Source: a virus. Taken from it: 40,625 nt of DNA. The DNA lies in UHGV virus genome UHGV-0137877; one strand, given 5' to 3'. Below are positions 50-40,405 of this stretch, in pieces. The position numbers were made by a program, and so were the translations under genes. Each line of letters begins with the position of its first letter. Position 1 is the first letter of the stretch. A model generated the notes under the pieces. The model was not told the DNA's origin. It searched no databases and worked only from the letters and a program-made list of their open reading frames with translations.

Positions 50-700
50 TCATGCAGCACGCTCCCGCCCCTGGTTGTCTGTTGGTGACAGCGGAGAATT
101 GCTGAATGCATTTGTTAATCTGGCAATATCCAACGCGTATCCAGGGTGTAGTTGCACTGCCGGGTCTTCGCACTGATTACCCCAAACATCGAAACCATGA
201 GACGACTGGCGGGCGAACAGTTCAATGCGAGAAACATCGCCTAACAATTGCACAAGTTTTTCACGAACGACATCTGGCTTTCTTGAATGCTCAAGCCGCG
301 GTGCGGTAAATGACTGAACGATCCCTGCATTAATGCGCGTAGGTAGTTTTCCCTTTACCGCAAACAGGCAATCTTCACTATTGGCGCGAGTCATGTGTCC
401 CATACCCATAACCAGTTTATCTGGTTGTCGACTACCACATTTTATCCACGTGAAGCCCTTCATCGTCATCAGACGGAATCCCCAGGCTTCAACAACTTTT
501 AGTGCTTCGAGTGGTTGTGTTGGCACCCACCACATGGCCAACAGACAGTTTTCATCGGCCAAATCCCACACAGGAAGGCGGCAGATATCCAGCACACTCA
601 TAACCGGATATTTAAAACCGGCACCGCGATTACCATCTGCGGCTTTATCCCGGTATACCCAGGGTGGATCTGCATAGATTAGCGTGTATTTCTTAGTCAT
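50..700 (-). CDS. N6-adenine DNA methyltransferase, MT-A70-like
   Basis: 216 aa; N-terminal LIYADPPWVY (DPPW motif); ATG at 700 preceded by GGGGTGG. Confidence 0.75.
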   Translation of the reverse strand: MTKKYTLIYADPPWVYRDKAADGNRGAGFKYPVMSVLDICRLPVWDLADENCLLAMWWVPTQPLEALKVVEAWGFRLMTMKGFTWIKCGSRQPDKLVMGMGHMTRANSEDCLFAVKGKLPTRINAGIVQSFTAPRLEHSRKPDVVREKLVQLLGDVSRIELFARQSSHGFDVWGNQCEDPAVQLHPGYALDIARLTNAFSNSPLSPTDNQGRERAA

Positions 701-992
701 AAACCACCCCGCAACATCCTATACCGCTATAGTCGCCACGGCGAAGGCCGTTACCTTTTGTGATACATTGGTCCCTGCGAACCGCGATCCTTGCACGCTC
801 AACATCACCAGAAGCAACATCCATACACTGAAGCCAAAGGTGGGCAGCAATGCGGAACTGCCCTTTTTTCTCTCTTTCAATCGCGCGTTTTTCGATCTCT
901 ATCGCCGCAGGAGTAACGGCAACAACCTTTGAAGGGCTGCGCATTGAAACCTTGTTCATGTGATATTTTTCAAGTCGGCTTAACTTTCTCAC
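693..992 (-). CDS. Hypothetical protein
   Basis: 99 aa; GTG start with AGAGGG Shine-Dalgarno; overlaps methyltransferase start by 8 nt; no recognisable motif. Confidence 0.35.
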   Translation of the reverse strand: MRKLSRLEKYHMNKVSMRSPSKVVAVTPAAIEIEKRAIEREKKGQFRIAAHLWLQCMDVASGDVERARIAVRRDQCITKGNGLRRGDYSGIGCCGVVYD

Positions 993-3550: not shown

Positions 3551-3569
3551 AACTTGTTACCTCGGTCTG

Positions 3570-3703: not shown

Positions 3704-4288
3704 TTATTGTTTGCTTTTTTCGTTCTGGTTGATGACAAATTCAATGTAACTTTCGATCTTTGCTTTCTCGGTTTCGGGTAACAATGCGTAGCGTGAGCGG
3801 TCATAGTTGATAGTCGCAGGGTCGTGCGGGTGAATCAGTAGTTCATATCCGTGACGCCCGAATGCGGATGCAACATTCTCCAGGGTGGAAATGGAAACGC
3901 TGACCTCATTGTTTAACAGGCGGCTGATTGTCACCTGGGCGACGCCGGATGCGCGGTGAAGTTTTCCCTGTGTTGAAAGGTCGCGGCTTTCGCTCATCCA
4001 GCGTTCCAGGTTGTGAGCCGCCAGCTGACCAATGTCGCTTGGGCCGACAGGCTGAAAACCTTCCTGAGAAAGCGAGCGATCGATATCAAGCCAGTTACGG
4101 GGTTTATTGGCGGCAGCTTCAATTTTTCGCGCAACCTGGTCGCCGATAACCTTCTTGCCAAGAGCCCAGCGGTTTACCAGATTTGCCTGAGTTCCAAGTT
4201 TTTCTGCCATCCGCGTCTGAACACCATTGAATTCACGGTCGATCAAGTCGTTGAGATTTTGCCTGCGGACGTCCTGGATACTTTTCAT
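3704..4288 (-). CDS. Prophage repressor (CI-like), two HTH domains, no S24 peptidase domain
   Basis: 194 aa; N-terminal HTH (QTRMAEKLGTQANLVNRWALGKK) and a second HTH-like segment (ASGVAQVTISRLLNNEVSVSISTLENVA); divergent from the cro-like gene. Confidence 0.7.
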   Translation of the reverse strand: MKSIQDVRRQNLNDLIDREFNGVQTRMAEKLGTQANLVNRWALGKKVIGDQVARKIEAAANKPRNWLDIDRSLSQEGFQPVGPSDIGQLAAHNLERWMSESRDLSTQGKLHRASGVAQVTISRLLNNEVSVSISTLENVASAFGRHGYELLIHPHDPATINYDRSRYALLPETEKAKIESYIEFVINQNEKSKQ

Positions 4289-6630: not shown

Positions 6631-6707
6631 TTACCTATCAGGTAACAAAATATTCTAAACTCTATTGATTTCGTGTCTTATGTGGTTTTTAATTACCTTA
6701 GAGGTAA
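6631..6707. promoter_or_regulatory. Promoter region with two operator sites (6631-6645, 6693-6707) and an ATGTGGTT element (6680-6687)
   Basis: TTACC-tatca-GGTAA and TTACC-ttaga-GGTAA; TTGATT -35-like (6665-6670) and TTTAAT -10-like (6688-6693); second site overlaps the RBS of the 6711 gene. Confidence 0.55.
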
Positions 6708-13678: not shown

Positions 13679-14053
13679 TTATTGCTCGCTTAACTTCTGC
13701 TTCAGCAAGTAACCTTCAAGCATCCAGATTTTGTTTACAGCATTCTGTCGGGCAATCTTCCGACCAATTTCTGCATCAAAGTTTTCCGGGCTTGCACAGG
13801 CGCTCTCTCCGGTGACGGTGAAGCCGTTGCGCAGCACCAGGACGCAGAAAGTGAGAAGGTGCAGAGCATCAGGGGTGGCTTCGACATAAGGCTCTGGATT
13901 ATAAATAAGGTCATCTTCTTTAGCCTGATGATCCCCCTGCGCAGCAGTAAAAAAATGCTCACTGCAAATGAGACCTTCAATTTTCTCAGGAGTTACACGA
14001 GGTGCCGTTTTACCTTTCTCAACGATTTCTTTTTCGATTTGCTGGTCGTTCAT
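13679..14053 (-). CDS. Hypothetical protein (inverted insert between terminase and portal)
   Basis: 124 aa; ATG at 14053 with AAGGTGA RBS; opposite strand to all flanking virion genes. Confidence 0.6.
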   Translation of the reverse strand: MNDQQIEKEIVEKGKTAPRVTPEKIEGLICSEHFFTAAQGDHQAKEDDLIYNPEPYVEATPDALHLLTFCVLVLRNGFTVTGESACASPENFDAEIGRKIARQNAVNKIWMLEGYLLKQKLSEQ

Positions 14054-14257: not shown

Positions 14258-14334
14258 TGGCGTGGCATGCAGGATTCGAACCTGCGACCAACCGCTTAGA
14301 AGGCGGTTGCTCTGTCCAACTGAGCTAATGCCAC
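14258..14334 (-). tRNA. tRNA-Arg (anticodon UCU)
   Basis: 77-nt cloverleaf folded by hand: 7-bp acceptor stem, D-arm GCTC/GAGC, anticodon stem ACCGC/GCGGT with loop CTTCTAA, T-arm GCAGG-TTCGAAT-CCTGC, discriminator G, encoded CCA. Confidence 0.9.
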
Positions 14335-30970: not shown

Positions 30971-30992
30971 AAAAAAGCCCGCAGAGCGGGCT
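30971..30992 (-). terminator. Rho-independent terminator after the DUF2335-like gene
   Basis: AGCCCGC-aga-GCGGGCT followed by a U6 run on the minus strand; overlaps the stop codon. Confidence 0.6.
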
Positions 30993-31540
30993 TACTTTTC
31001 TTCAGGTTTATTGTCTTCAGATTTCTTCTTGATGCTTGGTTTTTGTCTAAGAACGAAAATACCAGCCACTGCAACAACTGTACCGATCACTGTGCCTGCT
31101 AGAACTTCATGACCTGTTAAACCTAATAATGTTGCACAAGCTACTGTAAAAATAGTTGCACTCAGGCCAAACCACTGCCCACGTTTATCTCTATTAATAG
31201 CCCCGTCAAGTGCCTTTTCCTCCATTTTCTGGCGGTGAGCAAACTCCTTCTCCGTCAGCTGGAAGATGCGTTCGGGGGCATCAGGTAAAATATCCTGATA
31301 CCCGCGAAGCAGATAGGGGGGAGGAAGCGGACCCTGAAACGCATGGTGAGCGACAACTATCTCCTGAATTTCAGGGCGATCAAGAACTCTTGTGAAGGCA
31401 TCTGGGTGTTGAATGATCTCGTTACTTAGCCCTTCCTCAACTTCCTCGAACTCAGTTTCTTCGTTATCACTTGGTTGCCCAATAGATTTTTGCATATTTG
31501 TCGAAGGACATTCCTTTAGCTTCTGGTTTTCCTCTTGCAT
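30992..31540 (-). CDS. DUF2335-like membrane protein
   Basis: 182 aa (167 if it starts at the internal ATG 31495); acidic N-terminus, PPPYLL...ERIFQLTEKEFAHRQ core, two C-terminal transmembrane helices, Lys-rich tail. Confidence 0.55.
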   Translation of the reverse strand: MQEENQKLKECPSTNMQKSIGQPSDNEETEFEEVEEGLSNEIIQHPDAFTRVLDRPEIQEIVVAHHAFQGPLPPPYLLRGYQDILPDAPERIFQLTEKEFAHRQKMEEKALDGAINRDKRGQWFGLSATIFTVACATLLGLTGHEVLAGTVIGTVVAVAGIFVLRQKPSIKKKSEDNKPEEK

Positions 31541-31914: not shown

Positions 31915-32625
31915 TCAGAAGAACCCTGCCTTGTCGTTGATGTACTCCGCGTGAGTCTGGATATCACGCAGGCATTTGCTCACACCAACGATGTAGCAGA
32001 ACATGCTGGTCAGCTCCGCCGCCGCGCCCGATACATCGTGCCCGTCTTCCTGCAACTGGTTCAGCAAATTCATCAGCAGTGAGTTCTCCGTCAGGCCGAG
32101 AACACCAGACGGCGAATGAATCAGGCTACGGTAGCCGGGCTTCAGTGGGGCGCTGTAGGTTTTGTTCTCTATCTTCATTGCCTGCATCACTGCTGATGCT
32201 GTGGCGTTGGCTACCTGGTCGGCAACCATCTTTATGCGTTCTTCCTGCGGGAGCGAGTTTTTAATGTAACTTCCGGTGCGGCGGATCTGAGGAAGAACCT
32301 CACCTGTAACCCATTTACGAAAGCGGTAGGGGATAGTGCCTGGTGTCACCGCATCGCGGCAGCGGAGGATCAGTGTGTAGAGGCCTGACTCGGAGATGAT
32401 GTTGATCTCTTTTACTCGGCTGTCAAAAATTGCACGATGTTCATGCCCTATGTTGAACATAGACCTTTCATCATCATCCAGTTTTTCAAGTGCTTGGGTG
32501 ACGTTTTGGATACGCAGCGCACTACAAACGTCTTGGGCTACAAACCATGGTTGGCCATCGATAATGATGGAACGGATAGGGTTAACAGATTCAAATTTGA
32601 AGATGGCAGTTTGAGCATTAGCCAT
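31915..32625 (-). CDS. Antirepressor (BRO-N domain plus Ant-type C-terminal domain)
   Basis: ORF track 31915..32640; preferred ATG 32625 after GGAGAT; N-terminal FKFESVNPIRSIIIDGQPWFVAQDVCSAL is a classic BRO-N start. Confidence 0.8.
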   Translation of the reverse strand: MANAQTAIFKFESVNPIRSIIIDGQPWFVAQDVCSALRIQNVTQALEKLDDDERSMFNIGHEHRAIFDSRVKEINIISESGLYTLILRCRDAVTPGTIPYRFRKWVTGEVLPQIRRTGSYIKNSLPQEERIKMVADQVANATASAVMQAMKIENKTYSAPLKPGYRSLIHSPSGVLGLTENSLLMNLLNQLQEDGHDVSGAAAELTSMFCYIVGVSKCLRDIQTHAEYINDKAGFF

Positions 32626-32781
32626 GGTGGTTATCTCCACTTAGTGATTTTAATCACCACCGCAACGCCAATTACTGGTGGTGAACTGGACAAGGTTGGC
32701 GTACCGGCCTAAGTGGTACCGGCGTCCTTTCGGACCCCTGCCCAGCCCACCATAATTCGGATATAGCTGTGCTTAACGCAT

Positions 32782-32803
32782 AAAAAAACCACGTCTGGCG
32801 TGG
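32782..32803 (-). terminator. Rho-independent terminator between the two antirepressor genes
   Basis: CCACG-ccaga-CGTGG followed by a U7 run on the minus strand. Confidence 0.6.
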
Positions 32804-32894
32804 TATGCGCCACTTAGTAACTCGGGACGCCAATCCCGGCACTGGATTTTGCCAGTGCTCAATTACTATGGCACAAGAGGAGTGCGATGTAAAT

Positions 32895-32909
32895 TTACCG
32901 CAAAGGTAA
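32895..32909. promoter_or_regulatory. Operator site (TTACC-gcaaa-GGTAA) downstream of the small antirepressor gene
   Basis: Perfect 15-bp palindrome of the operator family. Confidence 0.5.
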
Positions 32910-32940
32910 ATATAAGCACTCCACTTGGTAATTGCAAACC

Positions 32941-33198
32941 TTATCTGGTTTGTTTTCGTAATTGTTCGGCACAATAGTCGAGATGTGTTTGCAGATCCTG
33001 CATAGACATCTGTGAGCTGGTGACGTAGTTAATCAGTGCAGTCAGTTCGGCAAGTGGGCCATCGACATTAAATCCATCCTTATCGAGATCCCGGAGTAAT
33101 TTCATCAAGTGCGATCCCTCCACCAGTGACCTGACGCCTCCCGGCGTGTGAATCCTTTCGGTAAATCCGTCTTCCAGTGGATAGTGATACTGCTGCAT
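32941..33198 (-). CDS. Small antirepressor-like protein (Ant C-terminal domain only)
   Basis: ORF track 32941..33213; preferred ATG 33198 after GGAGAAG; roughly half its residues are identical to the C-terminal 85 residues of the 31915-32625 antirepressor (IHTPGGV...LMKLL..L...G..V.G..AELT...). Confidence 0.65.
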   Translation of the reverse strand: MQQYHYPLEDGFTERIHTPGGVRSLVEGSHLMKLLRDLDKDGFNVDGPLAELTALINYVTSSQMSMQDLQTHLDYCAEQLRKQTR

Positions 33199-33220
33199 CT
33201 TAATCTTCTCCATGCAATAA

Positions 33221-33236
33221 CTGTATATTTATACAG
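33221..33236. promoter_or_regulatory. LexA (SOS) box
   Basis: CTGTATATTTATACAG, a perfect CTGT-N8-ACAG palindrome with AT-rich centre, 8 bp upstream of the small antirepressor ORF. Confidence 0.8.
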
Positions 33237-33275
33237 TAGCAAATAATTTGTTTGCTATCCAGCACGTTTTGCAAA

Positions 33276-33347
33276 TTACCTGAAAGGTAATATCTATTCG
33301 TATTCACAGTCTTTCTATCCATATGTGGTTTTTCAGGTAATAGAATA
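33276..33347. promoter_or_regulatory. Tailspike promoter region: operator (33276-33290), ATGTGGTT (33323-33330), GGTAAT/TAGAAT -10-like
   Basis: Perfect TTACC-tgaaa-GGTAA; same layout as the 14657-14734 region. Confidence 0.55.
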
Positions 33348-33394
33348 ACCAGATATGCGGCGCAACGGGTGCTGCGACTATCTGGAGATTTAAC

Positions 33395-36300
33395 ATGACG
33401 GTCTCAACCGAAGTTGACCACAACGAATACACAGGTAACGGCGTTACGACATCGTTTCCGTATACTTTTCGAATTTTCAGAAAATCAGACCTGGTTGTTC
33501 AGGTGTCTGACCTGAACGGGAACGTAACAGAATTGGTTCTGGATACCGGTTATACGGTAACTGGGGCGGGAACTTATAGTGGCGGTTCTGTGGTTCTTCC
33601 GTCGCCGCTTGCTACTGGATGGCGAATTACGATAGATCGTGTGCTTGATGTAGTGCAGGAGACAGACCTTCGCAATCAGGGAAAATTTTTCCCCGAAGTG
33701 CATGAAGATGCTTTTGACTACCTGACGATGCTGATCCAGCAATGTTTTGGGTGGTTCAGACGTGCATTGATGAAACCATCTTTGCTTGCAAAATATTACG
33801 ATGCAAAGCAAAACAAAATTTCTAACCTTGCAGATCCATCACTTGAACAGGACGCTGTAAATAATCGCTCAATGCGTAATTATGTCGATGCTGCAATCGC
33901 CGGGGTTGTTGGTGGTTTTGGTTGGTTTATTCAGTATGGTTCTGGGGCTGTGTACCGAACGTTCCAGGATAAAATGCGTGATGCTATTAGCCCCAAAGAT
34001 TTTGGAGCTGTTGGTGATGGTATAAATGACGATTCCACTGCAATAAGCGCGTGCCTTGAAGCCTCATCTCCAGGTTATAAAATTGACGGATTAGGGCTTA
34101 CTTTTAAAGTATCAACTCTTCCGGATGTCAGCCGATTTAAAAATGCTCGTTTTTTATTTGAGAGAATACCGGGTCAGCCTCTTTTTTATGCTTCTGAAGA
34201 TTTTATCCAGGGAGAGTTATTTAAAATTACAGATACACCGTGGTACAACGCCTGGACGCAGGATAAAACGTTTGTATATGACAATGTCATCTATGCGCCT
34301 TTTATGGCTGGAGACCGCCATGGTGTAAATAACCTCCATGTTGCATGGGTTCGCTCAGGAGATGACGGGAAGACCTGGACAACGCCGGAATGGCTTACAG
34401 ATTTACATGAAAACTATCCCACAGTTAACTATCACTGCATGAGTATGGGGGTTGTCAGAAATCGCCTTTTTGCTGTAATTGAGACGCGGACCGTGAGCGG
34501 AAATAAACTGCAGGTTGCAGAGTTGTGGGATCGCCCAATGAGTCGCAGCCTTCGCGTTTATGGTGGTATAACGAAAGCAGCAAATCAGCAAGTCGCTTAT
34601 ATTCGCATTACTGATCACGGATTATTTGCTGGTGATTTTGTCAACTTCTCAAACTCTGGTGTTACAGGTGTTACCGGGAATATGACGGTGACTACTGTTA
34701 TTGATAAAAATACTTTTACAGTTACGACGCAAAATACCCAGGATGTGGATCAGAATAACGAGGGTAGATACTGGAGTTTTGGTACATCATTTCACTCGTC
34801 ACCATGGAGAAAAACCAGTCTTGGAACTATTCCTTCTTTTGTTGACGGAAGCACTCCTGTTACTGAGATTCACAGTTTTGCGACGATTAGCGATAACAGT
34901 TTTGCTGTTGGCTACCATAATGGTGATATTGGTCCACGCGAGCTTGGGATACTCTATTTCTCTGATGCTTTCGGTTCTCCTGGTAGCTTTGTTCGCAGAC
35001 GCATACCTGCAGAATATGAGGCGAATGCATCTGAGCCATGTGTAAAATATTATGATGGCATTCTGTATCTGACGACCAGGGGGACATTAAGTACTCAACC
35101 CGGTAGTTCATTGCACAGAAGCTCTGATTTAGGTACATCATGGAATTCTCTTCGCTTCCCAAATAATGTTCATCACTCAAACCTTCCTTTTGCCAAAGTT
35201 GGCGATGAGCTGATTATTTTTGGCAGTGAGCGCGCATTTGGTGAGTGGGAAGGAGGAGAACCTGATAACCGTTATGCAGGAAATTATCCAAGAACATTTA
35301 TGACCAGAGTTAACGTCAATGAGTGGAGTCTGGATAATGTAGAGTGGGTTAATGTTACTGATCAGATTTATCAGGGCGGAATAGTTAACTCTGCGGTTGG
35401 TGTTGGTTCAGTTTGTATCAAAGACAACTGGCTGTACTACATTTTCGGTGGGGAAGACTTTCTAAACCCATGGAGCATAGGGGATAACAACAGAAAATAT
35501 CCTTATGTTCACGATGGTCACCCGGCTGATTTGTATTGTTTCAGGGTGAAAATTAAACAGGAAGAATTTGTTTCAAGGGATTTTGTCTACGGAGCCACTC
35601 CTAACAGAACGCTTCCTACTTTTATGTCGACGTCAGGCGTGAGGACGGTTCCTGTACCCGTTGATTTCACAGATGATGTTGCCGTCCAGTCACTGACTGT
35701 CCATGCAGGTACATCAGGACAAGTTCGCGCGGAAGTCAAACTTGAGGGTAATTACGCCATTATTGCGAAGAAAGTACCGTCTGATGATGTTACCGCTCAG
35801 AGATTAATCGTTAGCGGAGGTGAAACAACGTCTTCAGCAGATGGTGCAATGATAACGTTGCATGGTTCCGGAAGCAGTACTCCACGTCGCGCGGTATATA
35901 ACGCACTCGAACATCTTTTTGAGAACGGAGATGTTAAACCTTATCTTGATAATGTAAATGCTCTTGGTGGTCCGGGAAACAGGTTCTCGACAGTTTATCT
36001 TGGCTCCAATCCTGTGGTTACCAGTGACGGAACATTAAAGACAGAGCCGGTCTCTCCTGACGAAGCATTGCTGGATGCCTGGGGTGACGTCAGGTATATC
36101 GCTTATAAATGGCTGAACGCTGTCGCTATAAAGGGGGAAGAAGGGGCGAGGATACATCATGGTGTAATCGCGCAGCAACTTCGTGATGTTCTTATTTCTC
36201 ACGGACTCATGGAAGAAGAAAGCACAACATGCCGCTATGCCTTTCTTTGCTATGACGATTATCCCGCAGTATATGATGACGTCATTACTGGCCAAAGGGA

Positions 36301-36514
36301 AATGCCGCTGACTGATAATGACGGGAGCATCATTGTTGATGAGGATGATAATCCAGTGATGGTAATGGAAGACATCATTGAGCGCGTTGAAATAACGCCA
36401 GCAGGATCTAGATGGGGGGTCAGACCTGATCTCTTATTCTATATCGAGGCGGCATGGCAGCGCAGAGAAATGGATAAGATAAAAGAGCGGATTCAGTCTC
36501 TGGAAGAACGTTAA
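33395..36514 (+). CDS. Tailspike: endosialidase with gp17-like N-terminal anchor and C-terminal self-cleaving chaperone domain
   Basis: 1039 aa; N-terminus resembles the particle-binding domain of T7 gp17; two Asp-box motifs (SGDDGKTW, SSDLGTSW); C-terminal NPVVTSDGTLKTEP...HHGVIAQQLRDV resembles S74-type chaperone domains. Confidence 0.75.
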   Translation: MTVSTEVDHNEYTGNGVTTSFPYTFRIFRKSDLVVQVSDLNGNVTELVLDTGYTVTGAGTYSGGSVVLPSPLATGWRITIDRVLDVVQETDLRNQGKFFPEVHEDAFDYLTMLIQQCFGWFRRALMKPSLLAKYYDAKQNKISNLADPSLEQDAVNNRSMRNYVDAAIAGVVGGFGWFIQYGSGAVYRTFQDKMRDAISPKDFGAVGDGINDDSTAISACLEASSPGYKIDGLGLTFKVSTLPDVSRFKNARFLFERIPGQPLFYASEDFIQGELFKITDTPWYNAWTQDKTFVYDNVIYAPFMAGDRHGVNNLHVAWVRSGDDGKTWTTPEWLTDLHENYPTVNYHCMSMGVVRNRLFAVIETRTVSGNKLQVAELWDRPMSRSLRVYGGITKAANQQVAYIRITDHGLFAGDFVNFSNSGVTGVTGNMTVTTVIDKNTFTVTTQNTQDVDQNNEGRYWSFGTSFHSSPWRKTSLGTIPSFVDGSTPVTEIHSFATISDNSFAVGYHNGDIGPRELGILYFSDAFGSPGSFVRRRIPAEYEANASEPCVKYYDGILYLTTRGTLSTQPGSSLHRSSDLGTSWNSLRFPNNVHHSNLPFAKVGDELIIFGSERAFGEWEGGEPDNRYAGNYPRTFMTRVNVNEWSLDNVEWVNVTDQIYQGGIVNSAVGVGSVCIKDNWLYYIFGGEDFLNPWSIGDNNRKYPYVHDGHPADLYCFRVKIKQEEFVSRDFVYGATPNRTLPTFMSTSGVRTVPVPVDFTDDVAVQSLTVHAGTSGQVRAEVKLEGNYAIIAKKVPSDDVTAQRLIVSGGETTSSADGAMITLHGSGSSTPRRAVYNALEHLFENGDVKPYLDNVNALGGPGNRFSTVYLGSNPVVTSDGTLKTEPVSPDEALLDAWGDVRYIAYKWLNAVAIKGEEGARIHHGVIAQQLRDVLISHGLMEEESTTCRYAFLCYDDYPAVYDDVITGQREMPLTDNDGSIIVDEDDNPVMVMEDIIERVEITPAGSRWGVRPDLLFYIEAAWQRREMDKIKERIQSLEER

Positions 36515-36520
36515 AAAAAA

Positions 36521-36540
36521 GCCCGCAATATTTTGCGGGT
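36521..36540. terminator. Hairpin terminator after the tailspike gene
   Basis: GCCCGCAA-tatt-TTGCGGGT with A8 upstream; the U-run lies on the minus strand, so plus-strand termination may be weak. Confidence 0.45.
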
Positions 36541-36820
36541 ATCAAAAACGGAGTTTGTGAAAAGTTATCTTTGAATTCTATCATGAATCAGTACGTATTT
36601 TAAATACATGTTCAGGTTTATTACACCATAGCATTATTAAATACAAAATTAAGTCTATGGTTCCTGTACAACTGCCCCCACTCTGCTGGCTCGTTCTGTA
36701 AAATCATTAGTACTTTTATTGAGATATATGATACGGAACAATAATGATTCATATATGGTTTACTATGCGGGTTTAGTCATCAATAATTGACTGGCTTATA
36801 GATAGTAAACAGGAGAAAGT

Positions 36821-37225
36821 ATGTCTGCTCAAGTAACAAGTGAGCAATTAAATCAGTTGCTTAGTTTTGGTTCTCTTGCTGCGGTTATTGCAGGTGTCCC
36901 TCCGGAGGTTGCTTTAGGGGCTTTGGCTGGGGCGGTAATTTTTGTTACCTCTGCAGTAGAGTACCCCATCCGTCGCCGGGTGCTCCTGTCGATGCTCAGC
37001 TTTCTTTGCGGCCTTCTCTTTTACAAACCAGCAGCATCAATTCTTATCGGCATAGCCAGCCTGATCCCTACCATCACGCAGGACTCTTTTGAAAAAGGGA
37101 TTGTTTTCTCTGCAGGCGCATTCGTGTCAGCAATTGTCGCTGTGCGTATTGGTATATGGCTCTATCACCGTTCCGATAATCCACGCGAGTTAATTCCGGG
37201 GAGAAAAGACGATGGTAACGCATGA
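36821..37225 (+). CDS. Membrane protein, putative holin or lysis regulator
   Basis: 134 aa; AGGAGA RBS; three or four transmembrane segments; first gene of the lysis cluster. Confidence 0.45.
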   Translation: MSAQVTSEQLNQLLSFGSLAAVIAGVPPEVALGALAGAVIFVTSAVEYPIRRRVLLSMLSFLCGLLFYKPAASILIGIASLIPTITQDSFEKGIVFSAGAFVSAIVAVRIGIWLYHRSDNPRELIPGRKDDGNA

Positions 37226-37520
37226 GTTTTTTTTGCTTATCACCAATGCAGTTATTTGCACTGGCATAGCAATTCGCGTTGTCACATTCCGGCGTAACGG
37301 CTCTCAACATCGAAGGTGGGGAGGATGGCTTGCTTATTTCCTGATTGTTGCTGCGGCCAGTATTCCTGTTCGAGTCGCCTATGCAATCTGGTTACGTACG
37401 CCAATGGCTGTGGATTTATCCGAGGTCATTATCAACGCTGTCATGCTTGCTGCGGTTATTAAAACGCGCGGTAACGTCGTTCAAATTTTCAAAGTATCGA
37501 GGTCTAAACATGGAGATTAA
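37212..37520 (+). CDS. Holin-like membrane protein
   Basis: 102 aa; three hydrophobic helices, charged C-terminus; overlaps the endolysin start. Confidence 0.5.
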
Positions 37521-38139
37521 ACAATTCCAGCGAGCTGCTGGTATCAGCGAGGCACTGGCCGCACGCTGGTTCTCGCATATAACTTCTGCGATGAAAGAGT
37601 TTGGTATCAGCAAACCAGAAGATCAGGCTATGTTTATTGCTCAGGTCGGGCATGAGTCTGGAGGCTTCACCCGGTTGCAGGAGAATTTCAACTACAGCGT
37701 CAGCGGACTGGCTAACTTTGTTCGGGCTGGGCGTCTCACTCAGGGACAGGCCAACGCATTGGGGCGCCGTGCTGGTGAACCACCATTGCCACTTGAGCGC
37801 CAGCGCGCGATCGCAAATCTGGTATACAGCAAACGCATGGGGAACAATGCCCCTGGTGATGGCTGGAATTACCGAGGGCGCGGACTTATCCAGATTACCG
37901 GTTTGAATAACTATCGTGATTGCGGAAACGGTCTGAAGGTTGACCTGCTGGAGAGCCCTGAACTGCTGGCGCAGGACGAATATGCGGCTCGTAGCGCGGC
38001 GTGGTTCTTTGCCAGCAAAGGATGCATGAAGTATACCGGCGATATTGCACGTGTAACTCTGATTATCAATGGTGGCCGGAACGGCATCGACGACCGGCGC
38101 GCGCGATACATCAATGCCAGTAAGGTGCTGGCGGTATGA
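37510..38139 (+). CDS. Endolysin, GH19 chitinase-like
   Basis: ORF track 37345..38139; preferred ATG 37510 after GAGG; motifs [10 protein letters not shown] and [15 protein letters not shown]. Confidence 0.75.
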
Positions 38140-38633
38140 TCCTGACATTCGTAAAAGCATATTGGAAACAGCTGCTTATCGTGTTGATGCTTGCTGCTCT
38201 GTTCATCGTCGGAGTGGTTGCCTGGAATATACACGGCAGCCGCCAGTACGATGCCGGGTATGCGCAGGCACAGGAAGATCAGAAACAGGCTGATGATAAG
38301 GCCAGGTCACAACGTGATCAGGAGAAAACACAAATTGAACGTGAAGCACAATCCCGTATCGATGTGGCGCGTGTTGATGCTGAGCATGCTAATGCCGCTG
38401 CTGACAGCCTGCGCGCCGAGCTTGACAAAACCAAGCGACTCGCCGAACACTATACCGGATCTTTCCCCACTGGCACGCCAGCCAGCAAGGTCATCGGTGT
38501 GCTCGCCGACATGCTTGAAGAAAGCAATCGAGTTTACAACGCAACAGCAGCTGAGGCTGAAAAGTATCGGATTGCAGGAGAATCCTGCGAACAGCAATAC
38601 GATTCACTGAAGAAGCAAAAATCGTGGCACTGA
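38136..38633 (+). CDS. i-spanin (Rz-like)
   Basis: 165 aa; N-terminal transmembrane helix then charged coiled coil; directly after the endolysin. Confidence 0.6.
38362..38610 (+). CDS. o-spanin (Rz1-like), embedded in the +1 frame of the i-spanin gene
   Basis: ORF track 38191..38610; proposed start at an internal ATG giving [17 protein letters not shown] (lipobox LTAC) then a Pro-rich mature region. Confidence 0.5.
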   Translation: MWRVLMLSMLMPLLTACAPSLTKPSDSPNTIPDLSPLARQPARSSVCSPTCLKKAIEFTTQQQLRLKSIGLQENPANSNTIH

Positions 38634-38765
38634 TTTCCGGCGACGGTATATAAAACGGTACGGTGAAAATCATGTTGCAGAAAGTTGTTATCAATCAATT
38701 GTTTATGGTATCCGTAAATAATTGAGTGGGAATGATTTTGATCCCTGCACTATGAATGAACAAAA

Positions 38766-38829: not shown

Positions 38830-39369
38830 TTAATTAAACCAGCTGTCCGATTTGTTCTCTTCTGCTTTGCCCACGCTTTTCATCAGATCGCGACCGCCTT
38901 CAGTCATATTTCTGTTTGCGTCAGCTTCAGATTGCACCACATCGGTTTGCGCAGCTTTGTGCTTCAGTTCCTGATCGATAAATTCGTTTTCGCGCTTGAC
39001 GCGGGCTTCTTCTTTCGCCAGCGCCAGTTTTTGTTTCTGAATCTCTAAGCTACGTAGCTCATCTTCATAACTTTGATCGCGTTTTTTGTCCGCAGTGGCT
39101 TCGGCGTCCAGTTTATCCTGACGAGCTTTCTTATTCGCTGCTGCCGTTGCCGCTCTTTTATTAGCCGCGGCCTGGGCGTTTGCGCGACGTTGCTTCTCTT
39201 GCTGGATTTCCCTGTTGCGCTCCGCGACCCATTCGTCATGCTGCCTTTGCTCTTCATTTTTACCTTGCTGTTCCGCTTCTGCGACAGCCGAGAGTTGATC
39301 CTGCAATGATGAGGCGATAGCCGGATAGCTTAAGGAGGCTAAGATGGCGCAAAGAAAAACTTTCTTCAT
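38830..39369 (-). CDS. Secreted Lys/Ala/Glu-rich coiled-coil protein
   Basis: 179 aa; signal peptide MKKVFLCAILASLSYPAIA; strong AGGAGG RBS; 15-nt gap from the upstream gene. Confidence 0.55.
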   Translation of the reverse strand: MKKVFLCAILASLSYPAIASSLQDQLSAVAEAEQQGKNEEQRQHDEWVAERNREIQQEKQRRANAQAAANKRAATAAANKKARQDKLDAEATADKKRDQSYEDELRSLEIQKQKLALAKEEARVKRENEFIDQELKHKAAQTDVVQSEADANRNMTEGGRDLMKSVGKAEENKSDSWFN

Positions 39370-39384
39370 GACTCCTCCTGATTA

Positions 39385-39900
39385 TTAGCTCTTTTCAGGA
39401 CATTTGGTATTTGGCTGAATACGCGTTTCGTTATACGTCGTGGTAATAACAACGGCTAAACCTGTCGTAAACTGGCACTCTTTACCCACCTGGGTGGAGG
39501 TATACACTTTGGTGCCTTCCTTATATGTTAAAGAAACACCTTCCACTAAGGTTTTATCATTCACCATCGAACCCGCTGCCGCGCCTACAGCTCCGCCGCC
39601 AACTGCACCTGCCGTCGTTCCGGAATTGCTGCCAGACCCGACGTTGTGGCCGATAACACCGCCAGCGACAGCGCCAATAAGCGCGCCGAAGGCTTGTGCG
39701 TTCCGTTTATTTTGGGCGTTGTCTACGGCAACTTTTGCGGGAAGAATGGAAATAATATTAACGGTTTTAGTTTCTTGTTTGGTATTCAGTTGATCGGTTT
39801 GATAAACATCGGCGGCATGATCATCAGCATTTGACTGGCATCCTGCCAGAGTGAATGACGCTAACATTGCCACAGGCAGAAGACATTTTTTAAATTTCAT
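39385..39900 (-). CDS. Glycine-zipper lipoprotein (SlyB/YcfJ-like)
   Basis: ORF track 39385..39903; preferred ATG 39900; lipobox LAGC; Gly-zipper segment GALIGAVAGGVIGHNVGSGS...AVGGGAVGAAAG. Confidence 0.65.
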   Translation of the reverse strand: MKFKKCLLPVAMLASFTLAGCQSNADDHAADVYQTDQLNTKQETKTVNIISILPAKVAVDNAQNKRNAQAFGALIGAVAGGVIGHNVGSGSNSGTTAGAVGGGAVGAAAGSMVNDKTLVEGVSLTYKEGTKVYTSTQVGKECQFTTGLAVVITTTYNETRIQPNTKCPEKS

Positions 39901-40213
39901 CACTATTCCTTGTTATACACATTACGAAAAATGAGACATTTAAGATCATCAAAAGAGGAAAGTAAATGTATTGCGTATAAAGGAATAGATTAAATTTATT
40001 AAAATTCATGCGGGAAATAATTTATAAAAATACATCATCACAACATATGTATTAATGATGTATTTATTTCGCAGCCGAACAGGATGAACTTCAGTCAGAA
40101 CAAAGACGTAAAATTTAAGATGAAAGAATATCTGCCGCTTTGATAATCTCAAAGAGCAAAAGCATCCGACAGCGAGGTGCCGTTATGTTCTGTGAGAGTG
40201 GAGAAGGTAACCG

Positions 40214-40405
40214 CTAACGTTGTACCGGTGATTCGACGGAGAGTGTGGATTGCTGAGCTTCTTTTTTGCTCTGATGGTGCTGCCAGGCACCGACGGACGA
40301 GTAGATAAAACGGCCAAAGAAGAAGATAAAGCTGATGAGCAGTACGATACGGGTCATGCGACTGTTAAATCGGTGTCGTTTTCGCATACTGGTTGCCTGA
40401 CTCAC
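40214..40405 (-). CDS. Small single-pass membrane protein
   Basis: 63 aa; GTG start after AAGGAA; basic N-terminus then one hydrophobic helix. Confidence 0.35.
   Translation of the reverse strand: MSQATSMRKRHRFNSRMTRIVLLISFIFFFGRFIYSSVGAWQHHQSKKEAQQSTLSVESPVQR

Follow-up and report, generated by a model that had tools for sequence, protein, structure and literature searches.

A K1-type endosialidase tailspike joined to the virion anchor of an epsilon15/phiV10-like prophage

The window analysed here is the whole 40,625-nucleotide stretch of virus genome UHGV-0137877, and its region 33395-36514 encodes what domain content and conserved residues identify as an intact K1-capsule endosialidase tailspike. 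Very probably the protein serves as tailspike and receptor-destroying enzyme of a temperate, epsilon15/phiV10-like podovirus able to infect E. coli K1 and to lysogenise it. Its gene is a clean case of a receptor-binding module exchanged within a gene, across phage genera.

The open reading frame is uninterrupted and starts with an ATG codon preceded by the motif GGAG 8 nt upstream. The gene and the parts of its product are the following:

33395..36514, plus strand: tailspike gene coding an endosialidase (GH58-type) with a C-terminal intramolecular chaperone, 1039 aa (open reading frame list, Pfam, PDB structures of endoNF)
34208..35557, plus strand: six-bladed beta-propeller catalytic domain, aa 272-721 (Pfam End_beta_propel, PF12217, E 1.4e-233)
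34541-34789, plus strand: beta-barrel insertion in the propeller, aa 383-465 (Pfam End_beta_barrel, PF12195, E 3.2e-46)
34355-34378 and 35120-35143, plus strand: sialidase Asp-boxes (regular expression search)
35558..36022, plus strand: stalk or tail-spike domain, aa 722-876 (Pfam End_tail_spike, PF12219, E 8.4e-78; aligned to the end of the mature endoNF chain)
36023..36511, plus strand: C-terminal intramolecular chaperone (peptidase S74), aa 877-1039, with S877/K882 (Pfam Peptidase_S74, PF13884, E 1.7e-10 over aa 877-937; PDB 3gw6)

With End_N_terminal (PF12218, aa 205-271, E 5.9e-32) added, the tailspike matches every one of the four Pfam endosialidase domains, as well as the chaperone domain S74. 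Comparison with endoNF, proposed in the initial annotation, detected similarity at E = 0 to structures 1v0e/3gvl over aa 205-876, and at E 1.3e-93 to the C-terminal chaperone structure 3gw6 over aa 757-1038. Gp17 of phage K1F is 61.8% identical to the tailspike over aa 196-1039 of the latter. Residues H350, R549, E581, R596 and R647 of K1F, listed as catalytic or substrate-binding (PMC12632334), map to H309, R515, E547, R562 and R613, all five identical. The two Asp-boxes (S-x-D-x-G-x-x-W) read SGDDGKTW (aa 321-328) and SSDLGTSW (aa 576-583). The endosialidase tailspike and the pair of Asp-boxes that had been read from the sequence are both confirmed. It is suggested that the beta-propeller binds and cleaves alpha-2,8-polysialic acid, and that capsule cleavage would open a path for the virion across the K1 capsule down to the outer membrane.

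The Ser-Lys dyad at the S74 cleavage site acts in the self-cleavage of endoNF. The dyad is kept in the tailspike, where S911 and K916 of K1F correspond to S877 and K882 in the context ...NPVVT/SDGTLK..., and the predicted self-cleavage site lies between T876 and S877. The C-terminal domain, an intramolecular chaperone, would help the stalk to trimerise before removing itself by a cut ahead of Ser877 that Ser877 and Lys882 mediate. The self-cleaving chaperone domain of the initial annotation is thus supported, as a prediction, by PF13884, by 3gw6 and by the two residues.

The amino terminus had been described as a gp17-like anchor, a label that is not firmly confirmed, the similarity being sub-threshold only. 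The Pfam family Phage_T7_tail (PF03906) reaches 15.9 bits on the tailspike where the gathering cut-off is 25.2, and only aa 135-161 are covered; BLASTP of the anchor against T7 gp17 gives E 0.045 over 22 aa; and hhalign, run on shallow profiles, returns a probability of 1.9%. Neither the sequence nor the profile comparison of the anchor with T7 and K1F gp17 is significant. Distant kinship with the T7 gp17 adaptor may nevertheless exist. By sequence the anchor is clearly an epsilon15/phiV10-type tailspike amino terminus. Its aa 1-227 are 92.5% identical to the phiv142-3 tailspike and its aa 1-166 are 68% identical to the phiV10 tail fibre, and an alignment that includes epsilon15 gp20 supports homology to the epsilon15/phiV10 amino terminus. 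In PHROG, 25 different tail fibre or spike families match the tailspike amino terminus with their first ~165-204 positions, and the N-terminal domain of PDB 28lx/8ck1 matches the anchor with E 2.7e-34. An AlphaFold2 model of aa 1-204, computed from the single sequence, has a pLDDT of 38. The ~200 N-terminal residues probably fix the trimer to a tail hub specific of the genus.

The prophage itself is identified by its sequence as an epsilon15/phiV10-like (genus Uetakevirus) temperate podovirus. PhiV10, HEMP4 and O157 typing phages cover 81-86% of a backbone query (window 8500-33390) at ~97% identity. The virion genes match those of epsilon15/phiV10, and the gene order gp19-like, tailspike, holin is common to Uetakevirus. 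The prophage had been called lambda-like, which has to be revised: the prophage does not show a lambda-type late and morphogenetic module or regulatory layout, and lambdoid resemblance is found only in some early genes, such as those for a replication protein of lambda-P type, for RecT and for an HTH repressor. An open reading frame of 216 aa at 50-700 on the minus strand was considered as a NeuO-like capsule O-acetyltransferase and rejected, its product being an MT-A70 methyltransferase.

Downstream of the tailspike gene the window carries:

36515..36820, no strand assigned: gene-less spacer between the tailspike and holin genes, the slot of conversion genes in relatives
36821..38633, plus strand: lysis genes, two of holin families, a GH19 endolysin and a DUF2514 Rz-like gene (Pfam; RefSeq annotation of the equivalent prophage)
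38721..38737, plus strand: attR core ATTGAGTGGGAATGATT, right end of the prophage (exact match), followed by host yfgI/yfgH/yfgG

The core ATTGAGTGGGAATGATT was reported for ZX5 (vB_EcoP_ZX5), phiV10 and epsilon15 (PMC9782041). Related genomes have the prophage between guaA and yfgI, with its other end at guaA. The proposal of a temperate short-tailed prophage stands. Many E. coli prophages are cryptic and the integrase end is missing from the window, so that completeness is not judgeable from the window alone; the tailspike might accordingly be a relic on a defective prophage, endosialidase-like but no longer serving a virion. This is highly improbable considering that the reading frame is intact with all catalytic and cleavage residues retained, that the tailspike is 99.6% identical to the one of a plaque-forming, lysogenising phage, and that every virion or lysis gene of the window is intact and syntenic with phiV10.

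The tailspike combines parts of two origins. Residues 1 to ~199 belong to the genus anchor, and from ~aa 233 onward DNA identity with the tailspike gene of CUS-3 is 99.5%:

33395..33990, plus strand: N-terminal virion-anchor module of epsilon15/phiV10 type, conserved backbone, aa 1 to ~199 (DNA homology to phiv142-3)
33991..34092, plus strand: junction segment with the conserved cap motif DFGAVGDGxxDD, aa ~200-233 (three-way DNA alignment, BLAST breakpoints)
34093..36485, plus strand: endosialidase and chaperone module common to CUS-3 siaK1 (99.46% over 2393 nt to CP000711)

DNA homology to phiv142-3 spans 32634-33990 at 95.6% and that to phiV10 reaches 33829 at 82%. The junction segment is near neither parent at the DNA level in the three-way alignment. 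The swapped segment has its 5' breakpoint within the gene (33990/34093) and its 3' end at 36485-36796. The backbone anchor is joined, inside the reading frame, to an endosialidase module near-identical to that of the P22-like K1 prophage CUS-3. The architecture had been likened to that of K1 endosialidases from lytic phages; the likeness to endoNF is real, but lytic phages are not alone in having it, since the module shares 99.5% DNA identity with that of temperate CUS-3.

The initial annotation had further suggested that an operator-controlled promoter of its own may make the tailspike gene an exchangeable cassette. The gene does open a rightward unit after a leftward gene block and an operator is present upstream, the part of the proposal that is retained. 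Comparative evidence places the exchange breakpoints inside the tailspike gene and downstream of it, not at the promoter. A promoter-bounded cassette fails because the promoter region and the anchor are conserved backbone and the breakpoints lie within the gene and 3' of it. In phages that have other receptor-binding domains, the region 5' of the gene remains with the backbone, as do codons 1 to ~199 (homology to phiv142-3 and phiV10 extends into the anchor, and CUS-3-derived DNA begins only at 34093), and the same operator is also found 5' of other late operons. The proposal consequently has very little left in its favour.

The chimeric tailspike occurs in 72 of 5426 complete E. coli genomes; 154 have the CUS-3 type and ~327 match a fragment of the polysialyltransferase gene neuS that was appended to the query. 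Each of the 60 carriers checked, among those listed, gained exactly one extra match and hence has neuS (60/60), in a test that does not distinguish hosts of capsule K92 (alternating alpha-2,8/2,9) from K1 hosts and on genomes that are non-independent, coming from closely related lineages, many of them ST95-type ExPEC/APEC by look. Strain APEC O1 has a full kps/neu cluster with the polysialyltransferase, and carriers serotyped as K1 include O1:K1:H7, O2:K1:H5, O7:K1 CE10 and YO1 O87:H52:K1. The prediction that the host or its relatives make a polysialic acid capsule is well supported by these results, and the search for kps/neu genes suggested along with it found them in APEC O1.

Endosialidases vary in minimum chain length, K92 tolerance and O-acetylation tolerance, and the junction/cap segment (aa 200-238) is unlike its CUS-3 counterpart. 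An enzyme directed to a sialic-acid polymer other than plain K1 polysialic acid, for instance K92 or (de-)O-acetylated forms only, would broaden or alter the predicted host range; it is still barely credible, as the propeller, barrel and stalk are ~99.5% DNA-identical to the assay-annotated CUS-3 siaK1 and the carriers include K1-serotyped strains.

The divergent region upstream of the tailspike gene has several candidate control elements:

32941..33198, minus strand: small gp19-like gene, 85 aa (phrog_450, phrog_1760 anti-repressor)
33221..33236, no strand assigned: LexA-box-like palindrome CTGTATATTTATACAG, just 5' of the leftward small gene
33275..33291, no strand assigned: operator ATTACCTGAAAGGTAAT, a palindrome of 17 bp between the divergent genes, 104 nt ahead of the tailspike ATG

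The operator assignment is based on the features of the epsilon15 RefSeq record (NC_004775), in which ATTACCTGAAAGGTAAT is the site annotated 'protein_bind repressor, lysogeny'. The site is conserved in four phages and genus-wide, and has 14 copies in the window versus 1.0 expected. CTGTATATTTATACAG is the sole exact LexA-box-like match in the window, and its form CTGT-N8-ACAG is kept in phiv142-3, phiV10 and epsilon15. The gp19-like gene is homologous to the C-terminal domain of the adjoining antirepressor (E 5e-16, 42% identity to aa 160-233 of Ant). The leftward antirepressor operon may be the main target of both the operator and the LexA box. No sigma-70 consensus promoter matching at 9/12 positions or more was found in 33199-33394 on either strand; weak candidates picked by eye are TTGCAA-16-TATCTA across the operator and, at 33341-33346, a conserved TAGAAT. 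On the downstream side, the hairpin 3' of the tailspike gene has no T-run on the plus strand, and the lysis genes 36821..38633 are probably co-transcribed with the tailspike. When the ZX5 repressor is overexpressed, transcripts of holin and endolysin fall by over 99.9% (PMC9782041). It is likely that the tailspike is silenced in the lysogen by the prophage repressor (194 aa), directly or indirectly; the divergent control region contains the 17-bp operator of this repressor.

The slot between tailspike and lysis genes is occupied by oac in phiV10, by O-antigen conversion genes in epsilon15 and by neuO in CUS-3. Neither a gene nor an AAGACTC repeat region was found 3' of the tailspike here. The spacer 36515-36820 is unrelated to CUS-3, and segment 36486-36820 is present, among phage records, only in ZX5-type records. 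The epsilon15-like lineage would be devoid of a receptor-modifying conversion gene, unlike CUS-3, phiV10 and epsilon15, and direct repressor control of the tailspike-lysis unit may spare the capsule of its own host from stripping. Strain IHE3034 carries both CUS-3-type and epsilon15-like prophages, and a 1-kb fragment spanning the tailspike junction has a second match in 43 of the 60 carriers, among those listed. The 2.4-kb module (99.5% identical) may have passed between two unrelated temperate podoviruses at the DFGAxGDGxxDD cap motif. The complete scenario, a recent exchange between a CUS-3 prophage and one of epsilon15-like type that shared a K1 cell, together with repressor control replacing the conversion gene, is put forward tentatively, with chances somewhat short of even.

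The polysialic-acid capsule K1 is the key virulence factor of E. coli that cause neonatal meningitis and of urinary and avian pathogenic strains, and endosialidases serve as reagents and anti-capsule therapeutics. Neither the protein nor the phage type is new: both are in the databases, where RefSeq names the equivalent gene of related genomes as endosialidase, and in the 2022 ZX5 paper; a literature search for older accounts of a K1 prophage of epsilon15-like type gave only that paper and general reviews. A second temperate phage lineage with a K1 depolymerase is documented here, and current understanding is unchanged because the protein was already annotated and the phage type published in 2022.

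The closest known system is vB_EcoP_ZX5, whose tail protein gene ORF7 (MW722083; PMC9782041) is 99.6-99.7% DNA-identical over its full length. The two phages share the Uetakevirus backbone, the att core, a K1 host (O87:H52:K1 for ZX5) and the three-part tailspike architecture, and the ZX5 genome covers ~77% of the backbone query (window 8500-33390) at ~97% identity. The ZX5 paper of 2022 described the tailspike domains without a test of enzyme activity or capsule dependence (PMC9782041).

CUS-3 is, like this prophage, a temperate podovirus of K1 E. coli, of a different genus (Lederbergvirus). The catalytic, stalk and chaperone modules of its SiaK1 (CP000711) are 99.46% DNA-identical (34093-36485), with 95.5% protein identity, and the siaK1 record cites experimental endo-alpha-sialidase activity. 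The CUS-3 tailspike has a P22 gp9-type head-binding amino terminus whose first ~133 aa lack a counterpart here, where a 192-aa epsilon15-type anchor replaces it and similarity starts at aa 193 (CUS-3 aa 134). CUS-3 has the phase-variable neuO after its tailspike gene, in contrast to the gene-less spacer of the present prophage.

EndoNF, gp17 of the lytic phage K1F (1v0e, 3gvl, 3gw6), agrees with the present tailspike in the domains that define the fold, in the catalytic residues and in the Ser-Lys dyad for maturation. The amino terminus of K1F gp17 is a genuine adaptor of the T7 gp17 kind (E 3e-21 to T7), whereas the tailspike described here resembles it only below threshold and has a 7-aa insertion near aa 482-488. 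PhiV10, phiv142-3 and epsilon15 share the anchor, the upstream gp19-like gene and control region and the downstream lysis genes, while their receptor-binding parts have O-antigen targets and are unrelated to endosialidase, and their tailspike genes are followed by conversion genes or an extra open reading frame.

The tailspike (1039 aa) is encoded by one unbroken ORF on the plus strand (33395..36514), with an ATG start and GGAG 8 nt upstream. Behind an N-terminal anchor (aa 1 to ~199) it has the following Pfam domains.

Pfam domains of the tailspike (E-value in brackets)
aa 205-271, End_N_terminal (5.9e-32)
aa 272-721, End_beta_propel (1.4e-233)
aa 383-465, End_beta_barrel, inserted (3.2e-46)
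aa 722-876, End_tail_spike (8.4e-78)
aa 877-937, Peptidase_S74, 'chaperone of endosialidase' (1.7e-10)

Searches against solved structures aligned aa 205-876 with the catalytic fragment of endoNF (1v0e, 3gvl; E = 0) and matched the phi92 endosialidase 4hiz (E 1.6e-271), while aa 757-1038 match the crystal structure of the endoNF C-terminal chaperone, 3gw6 (E 1.3e-93). These similarities are far beyond chance. Together with the Pfam domains they bear out the initial annotation of an endoNF-related endosialidase tailspike with a C-terminal chaperone domain, whose two Asp-boxes were also found (SGDDGKTW, aa 321-328; SSDLGTSW, aa 576-583). In a global alignment with the gene 17 product of lytic phage K1F (61.8% identity over aa 196-1039), all residues listed as catalytic or substrate-binding in a deep mutational scan of K1F (PMC12632334) are identical.

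Residues of K1F and their tailspike counterparts
H350, H309
R549, R515
E581, E547
R596, R562
R647, R613
S911, S877
K916, K882

S877 and K882 lie within NPVVT/SDGTLK and form the Ser-Lys pair at the maturation site. We take this pair (S911/K916 in endoNF) to be the autoproteolytic dyad. The protein is an intact endosialidase tailspike, predicted to cleave K1 capsule, on an epsilon15/phiV10-like prophage. The core of the initial interpretation was right; its lambda-like, gp17-like and cassette details need correction.

Window 8500-33390 is covered to 81-86% at ~97% identity by phiV10, HEMP4, O157 typing phages 9 and 10 and phiv142-3, to 77% by the temperate phage vB_EcoP_ZX5 (ZX5) and to 78% by PAS61; epsilon15 is ~76% identical. 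The genus of the phages matching this backbone is Uetakevirus, and the PHROG matches of the large virion proteins are consistent with it. Lambdoid-looking modules (replication protein P, RecT, HTH repressor) occur only in the early region, so that 'lambda-like' fits those modules but is imprecise for the Uetakevirus backbone. In RefSeq genomes this prophage is found with guaA on one side and yfgI on the other. The att core ATTGAGTGGGAATGATT is matched exactly at 38721-38737, and the same core is given for ZX5, phiV10 and epsilon15 (PMC9782041). Window 38830-40405 is host DNA (yfgI, yfgH, yfgG), and the window covers the prophage without its integrase end. Other features of the prophage are listed here.

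50-992, minus strand, integrase-proximal end: MT-A70 family DNA methyltransferase (50-700) and PerC-family regulator (693-992)
13679-14053, minus strand, Gp49/Sf6 gene-66 family gene adjoining tRNA-Arg
14258-14334, minus strand, tRNA-Arg (anticodon TCT) between the terminase and portal operons, likewise in O157 typing phages and APEC O1
30975-30993, bidirectional terminator closing the virion-gene operon
30992-31540, minus strand, DUF2335 membrane-protein 'moron' gene directly after the terminator, opposite in strand to that operon

The tailspike gene is a mosaic whose breakpoints were located by BLAST of the window against the tailspike loci of other phages. Homology to the phiv142-3 backbone runs from 32634 to 33990 (95.6%), taking in the upstream gene, all of the intergenic control region and the first ~199 codons, and sets in again at 36796, shortly before the holin gene. 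Between 34093 and 36485 the DNA is 99.46% identical over 2393 nt to siaK1 of the K1 prophage CUS-3, and aa 193-1039 share 95.5% protein identity with CUS-3 aa 134-980. The ~100 nt of the junction (33991-34092) encode the widely conserved cap motif DFGAVGDGxxDD. In DNA, the segment 33991-34109 (aa ~200-238, cap motif DFGAVGDGINDD) is near neither the backbone parent nor CUS-3, which hints at a third donor or an older recombination at the conserved motif.

Twenty-five different PHROG tail fibre/spike families match the anchor over their first 165-204 positions, marking it as a widespread adaptor that is combined with many receptor-binding domains. Identity is 92.5% with the tail fibre of phiv142-3 over residues 1-227 and 68% with phiV10 over residues 1-166. 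The description of the anchor as gp17-like is marginal, with 15.9 bits for Pfam Phage_T7_tail (cut-off 25.2) and, against T7 gp17, a BLASTP E of 0.045 over 22 aa and an hhalign probability of 1.9%. A single-sequence AlphaFold model of the anchor was unusable (pLDDT 38).

The divergent region upstream of the tailspike gene (33199-33394, 196 nt) contains two palindromic elements.

33221-33236, CTGTATATTTATACAG, perfect palindrome matching the consensus LexA box, just upstream of the leftward 85-aa gene
33275-33291, ATTACCTGAAAGGTAAT, 17-bp palindrome at the same site as the epsilon15 RefSeq feature 'protein_bind: repressor, lysogeny'

The CTGT-N8-ACAG form of the first is kept in phiv142-3, phiV10 and epsilon15. 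The second (ATTACC-N5-GGTAAT) has 14 copies in the window at no more than 2 mismatches (1.0 expected), at 3569, 3631, 4343, 4728, 6630, 6692, 11487, 11505, 14656, 23595, 31814, 32894, 33275 and 37164. They are mostly intergenic and ahead of operons, and their arrangement is that of epsilon15, with copies next to the repressor gene, behind the replication genes and in front of the terminase, portal and tailspike units. Two pairs (3569/3631 and 6630/6692) are spaced by 62 bp, and at 6679 and at 33322 an identical 12-mer, TATGTGGTTTTT, stands ahead of the downstream site. The epsilon15 annotation, the copy number and the shared layout show that the operator upstream of the tailspike is real and genus-wide. 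A search of 33199-33394 for a consensus sigma-70 promoter gave none, and each of the two palindromes may act in either direction. Overexpression of the ZX5 repressor lowers holin and endolysin transcripts by >99.9% (PMC9782041), a result compatible with repression of a tailspike-lysis unit. As control region and anchor are constant while the receptor-binding part varies, a promoter-bounded exchangeable cassette is unsupported; the unit of exchange is the distal tailspike gene and the slot behind it.

The 85-aa product of the leftward gene (32941-33198, minus strand) shares 42% identity with the C-terminal domain of the BRO-N antirepressor encoded next to it (31915-32640, minus strand), and the prophage repressor (3704-4288, minus strand) has HTH domains and no S24 peptidase match in Pfam. 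With the LexA box, this suggests SOS induction via a LexA-controlled small antirepressor, not repressor self-cleavage. Between the two leftward genes lie two Rfam gathering-level matches and a promoter-like site.

32674-32757, minus strand, C4 antisense RNA (66 bits)
32782-32858, minus strand, isrK Hfq-binding RNA (67.2 bits)
32937-32909, minus strand, promoter-like TTGCAA-17-TATATT, with an operator-like palindrome at 32894-32910

The segment 32674-32858 is a module like immI of P1/P7 or isrK of Gifsy-1, for control of the antirepressor by antisense RNA.

Behind the tailspike gene, a 306-nt spacer without genes (36515-36820) precedes the holin gene. This slot holds oac in phiV10, O-antigen conversion genes in epsilon15 and neuO in CUS-3, whereas it is gene-less here. 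Among phage records, the spacer is matched only in ZX5-type records. Its minus strand shows a promoter-like TG-extended TAGAAT (36604-36575) and, at 36539-36513, a strong hairpin with U8 after it (z = -3.2). The spacer could be a vestigial cassette, or it could encode an RNA of ~60 nt whose end falls at the stop codon of the tailspike gene.

At least 80% of window 32600-37300 is present in 72 of 5426 complete E. coli genomes, including APEC O1, IAI39, O7:K1 CE10, O1:K1:H7 APEC strains and a cerebrospinal-fluid isolate. A 1-kb junction-spanning fragment again found 72 genomes, the carriers listed now including IHE3034 and an O2:K1:H5 APEC strain. The prediction that hosts make a polysialic acid capsule agrees with their gene content. 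APEC O1 has a complete kps/neu cluster with the alpha-2,8-polysialyltransferase. When the junction-spanning fragment was compared, alone and with 501 nt of neuS appended, in the best 60 of 72 genomes, every carrier gained exactly one matching place, so neuS is present in 60/60. In all, appending neuS brought in 327 further matching places, pointing to ~327 neuS-positive genomes among complete E. coli. The association of this prophage with neuS is strong, but the genomes are phylogenetically clustered and so do not count as independent events. The CUS-3-type junction occurs in 154 complete E. coli genomes, against 72 for the Uetakevirus type, and IHE3034 has both. A second match to the junction-spanning fragment was found in 43 of the same best 60 carriers. 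Near-identical endosialidase modules are thus found in K1 strains on two different temperate podovirus lineages.

Temperate K1 phages have their prototype in CUS-3, a P22-like K1 prophage whose tailspike is also an endosialidase. ZX5 is a temperate Uetakevirus of host O87:H52:K1 integrating at guaA, and its tailspike gene, 99.6% identical to the one studied here, was described in 2022 as a T7-like tail-fibre N-terminus, endosialidase and intramolecular chaperone (PMC9782041). RefSeq names the equivalent gene of APEC O1 and ExPEC XM (WP_000218907.1) 'endosialidase catalytic beta-propeller domain-containing protein'. A K1 endosialidase tailspike on a Uetakevirus prophage is therefore correct and already known. 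What may so far be unstated in print is the near-identity of its endosialidase module to that of CUS-3, the exact breakpoints within the gene, the co-residence of CUS-3-type and Uetakevirus-type prophages in K1 strains and the conversion-gene slot lacking a conversion gene.
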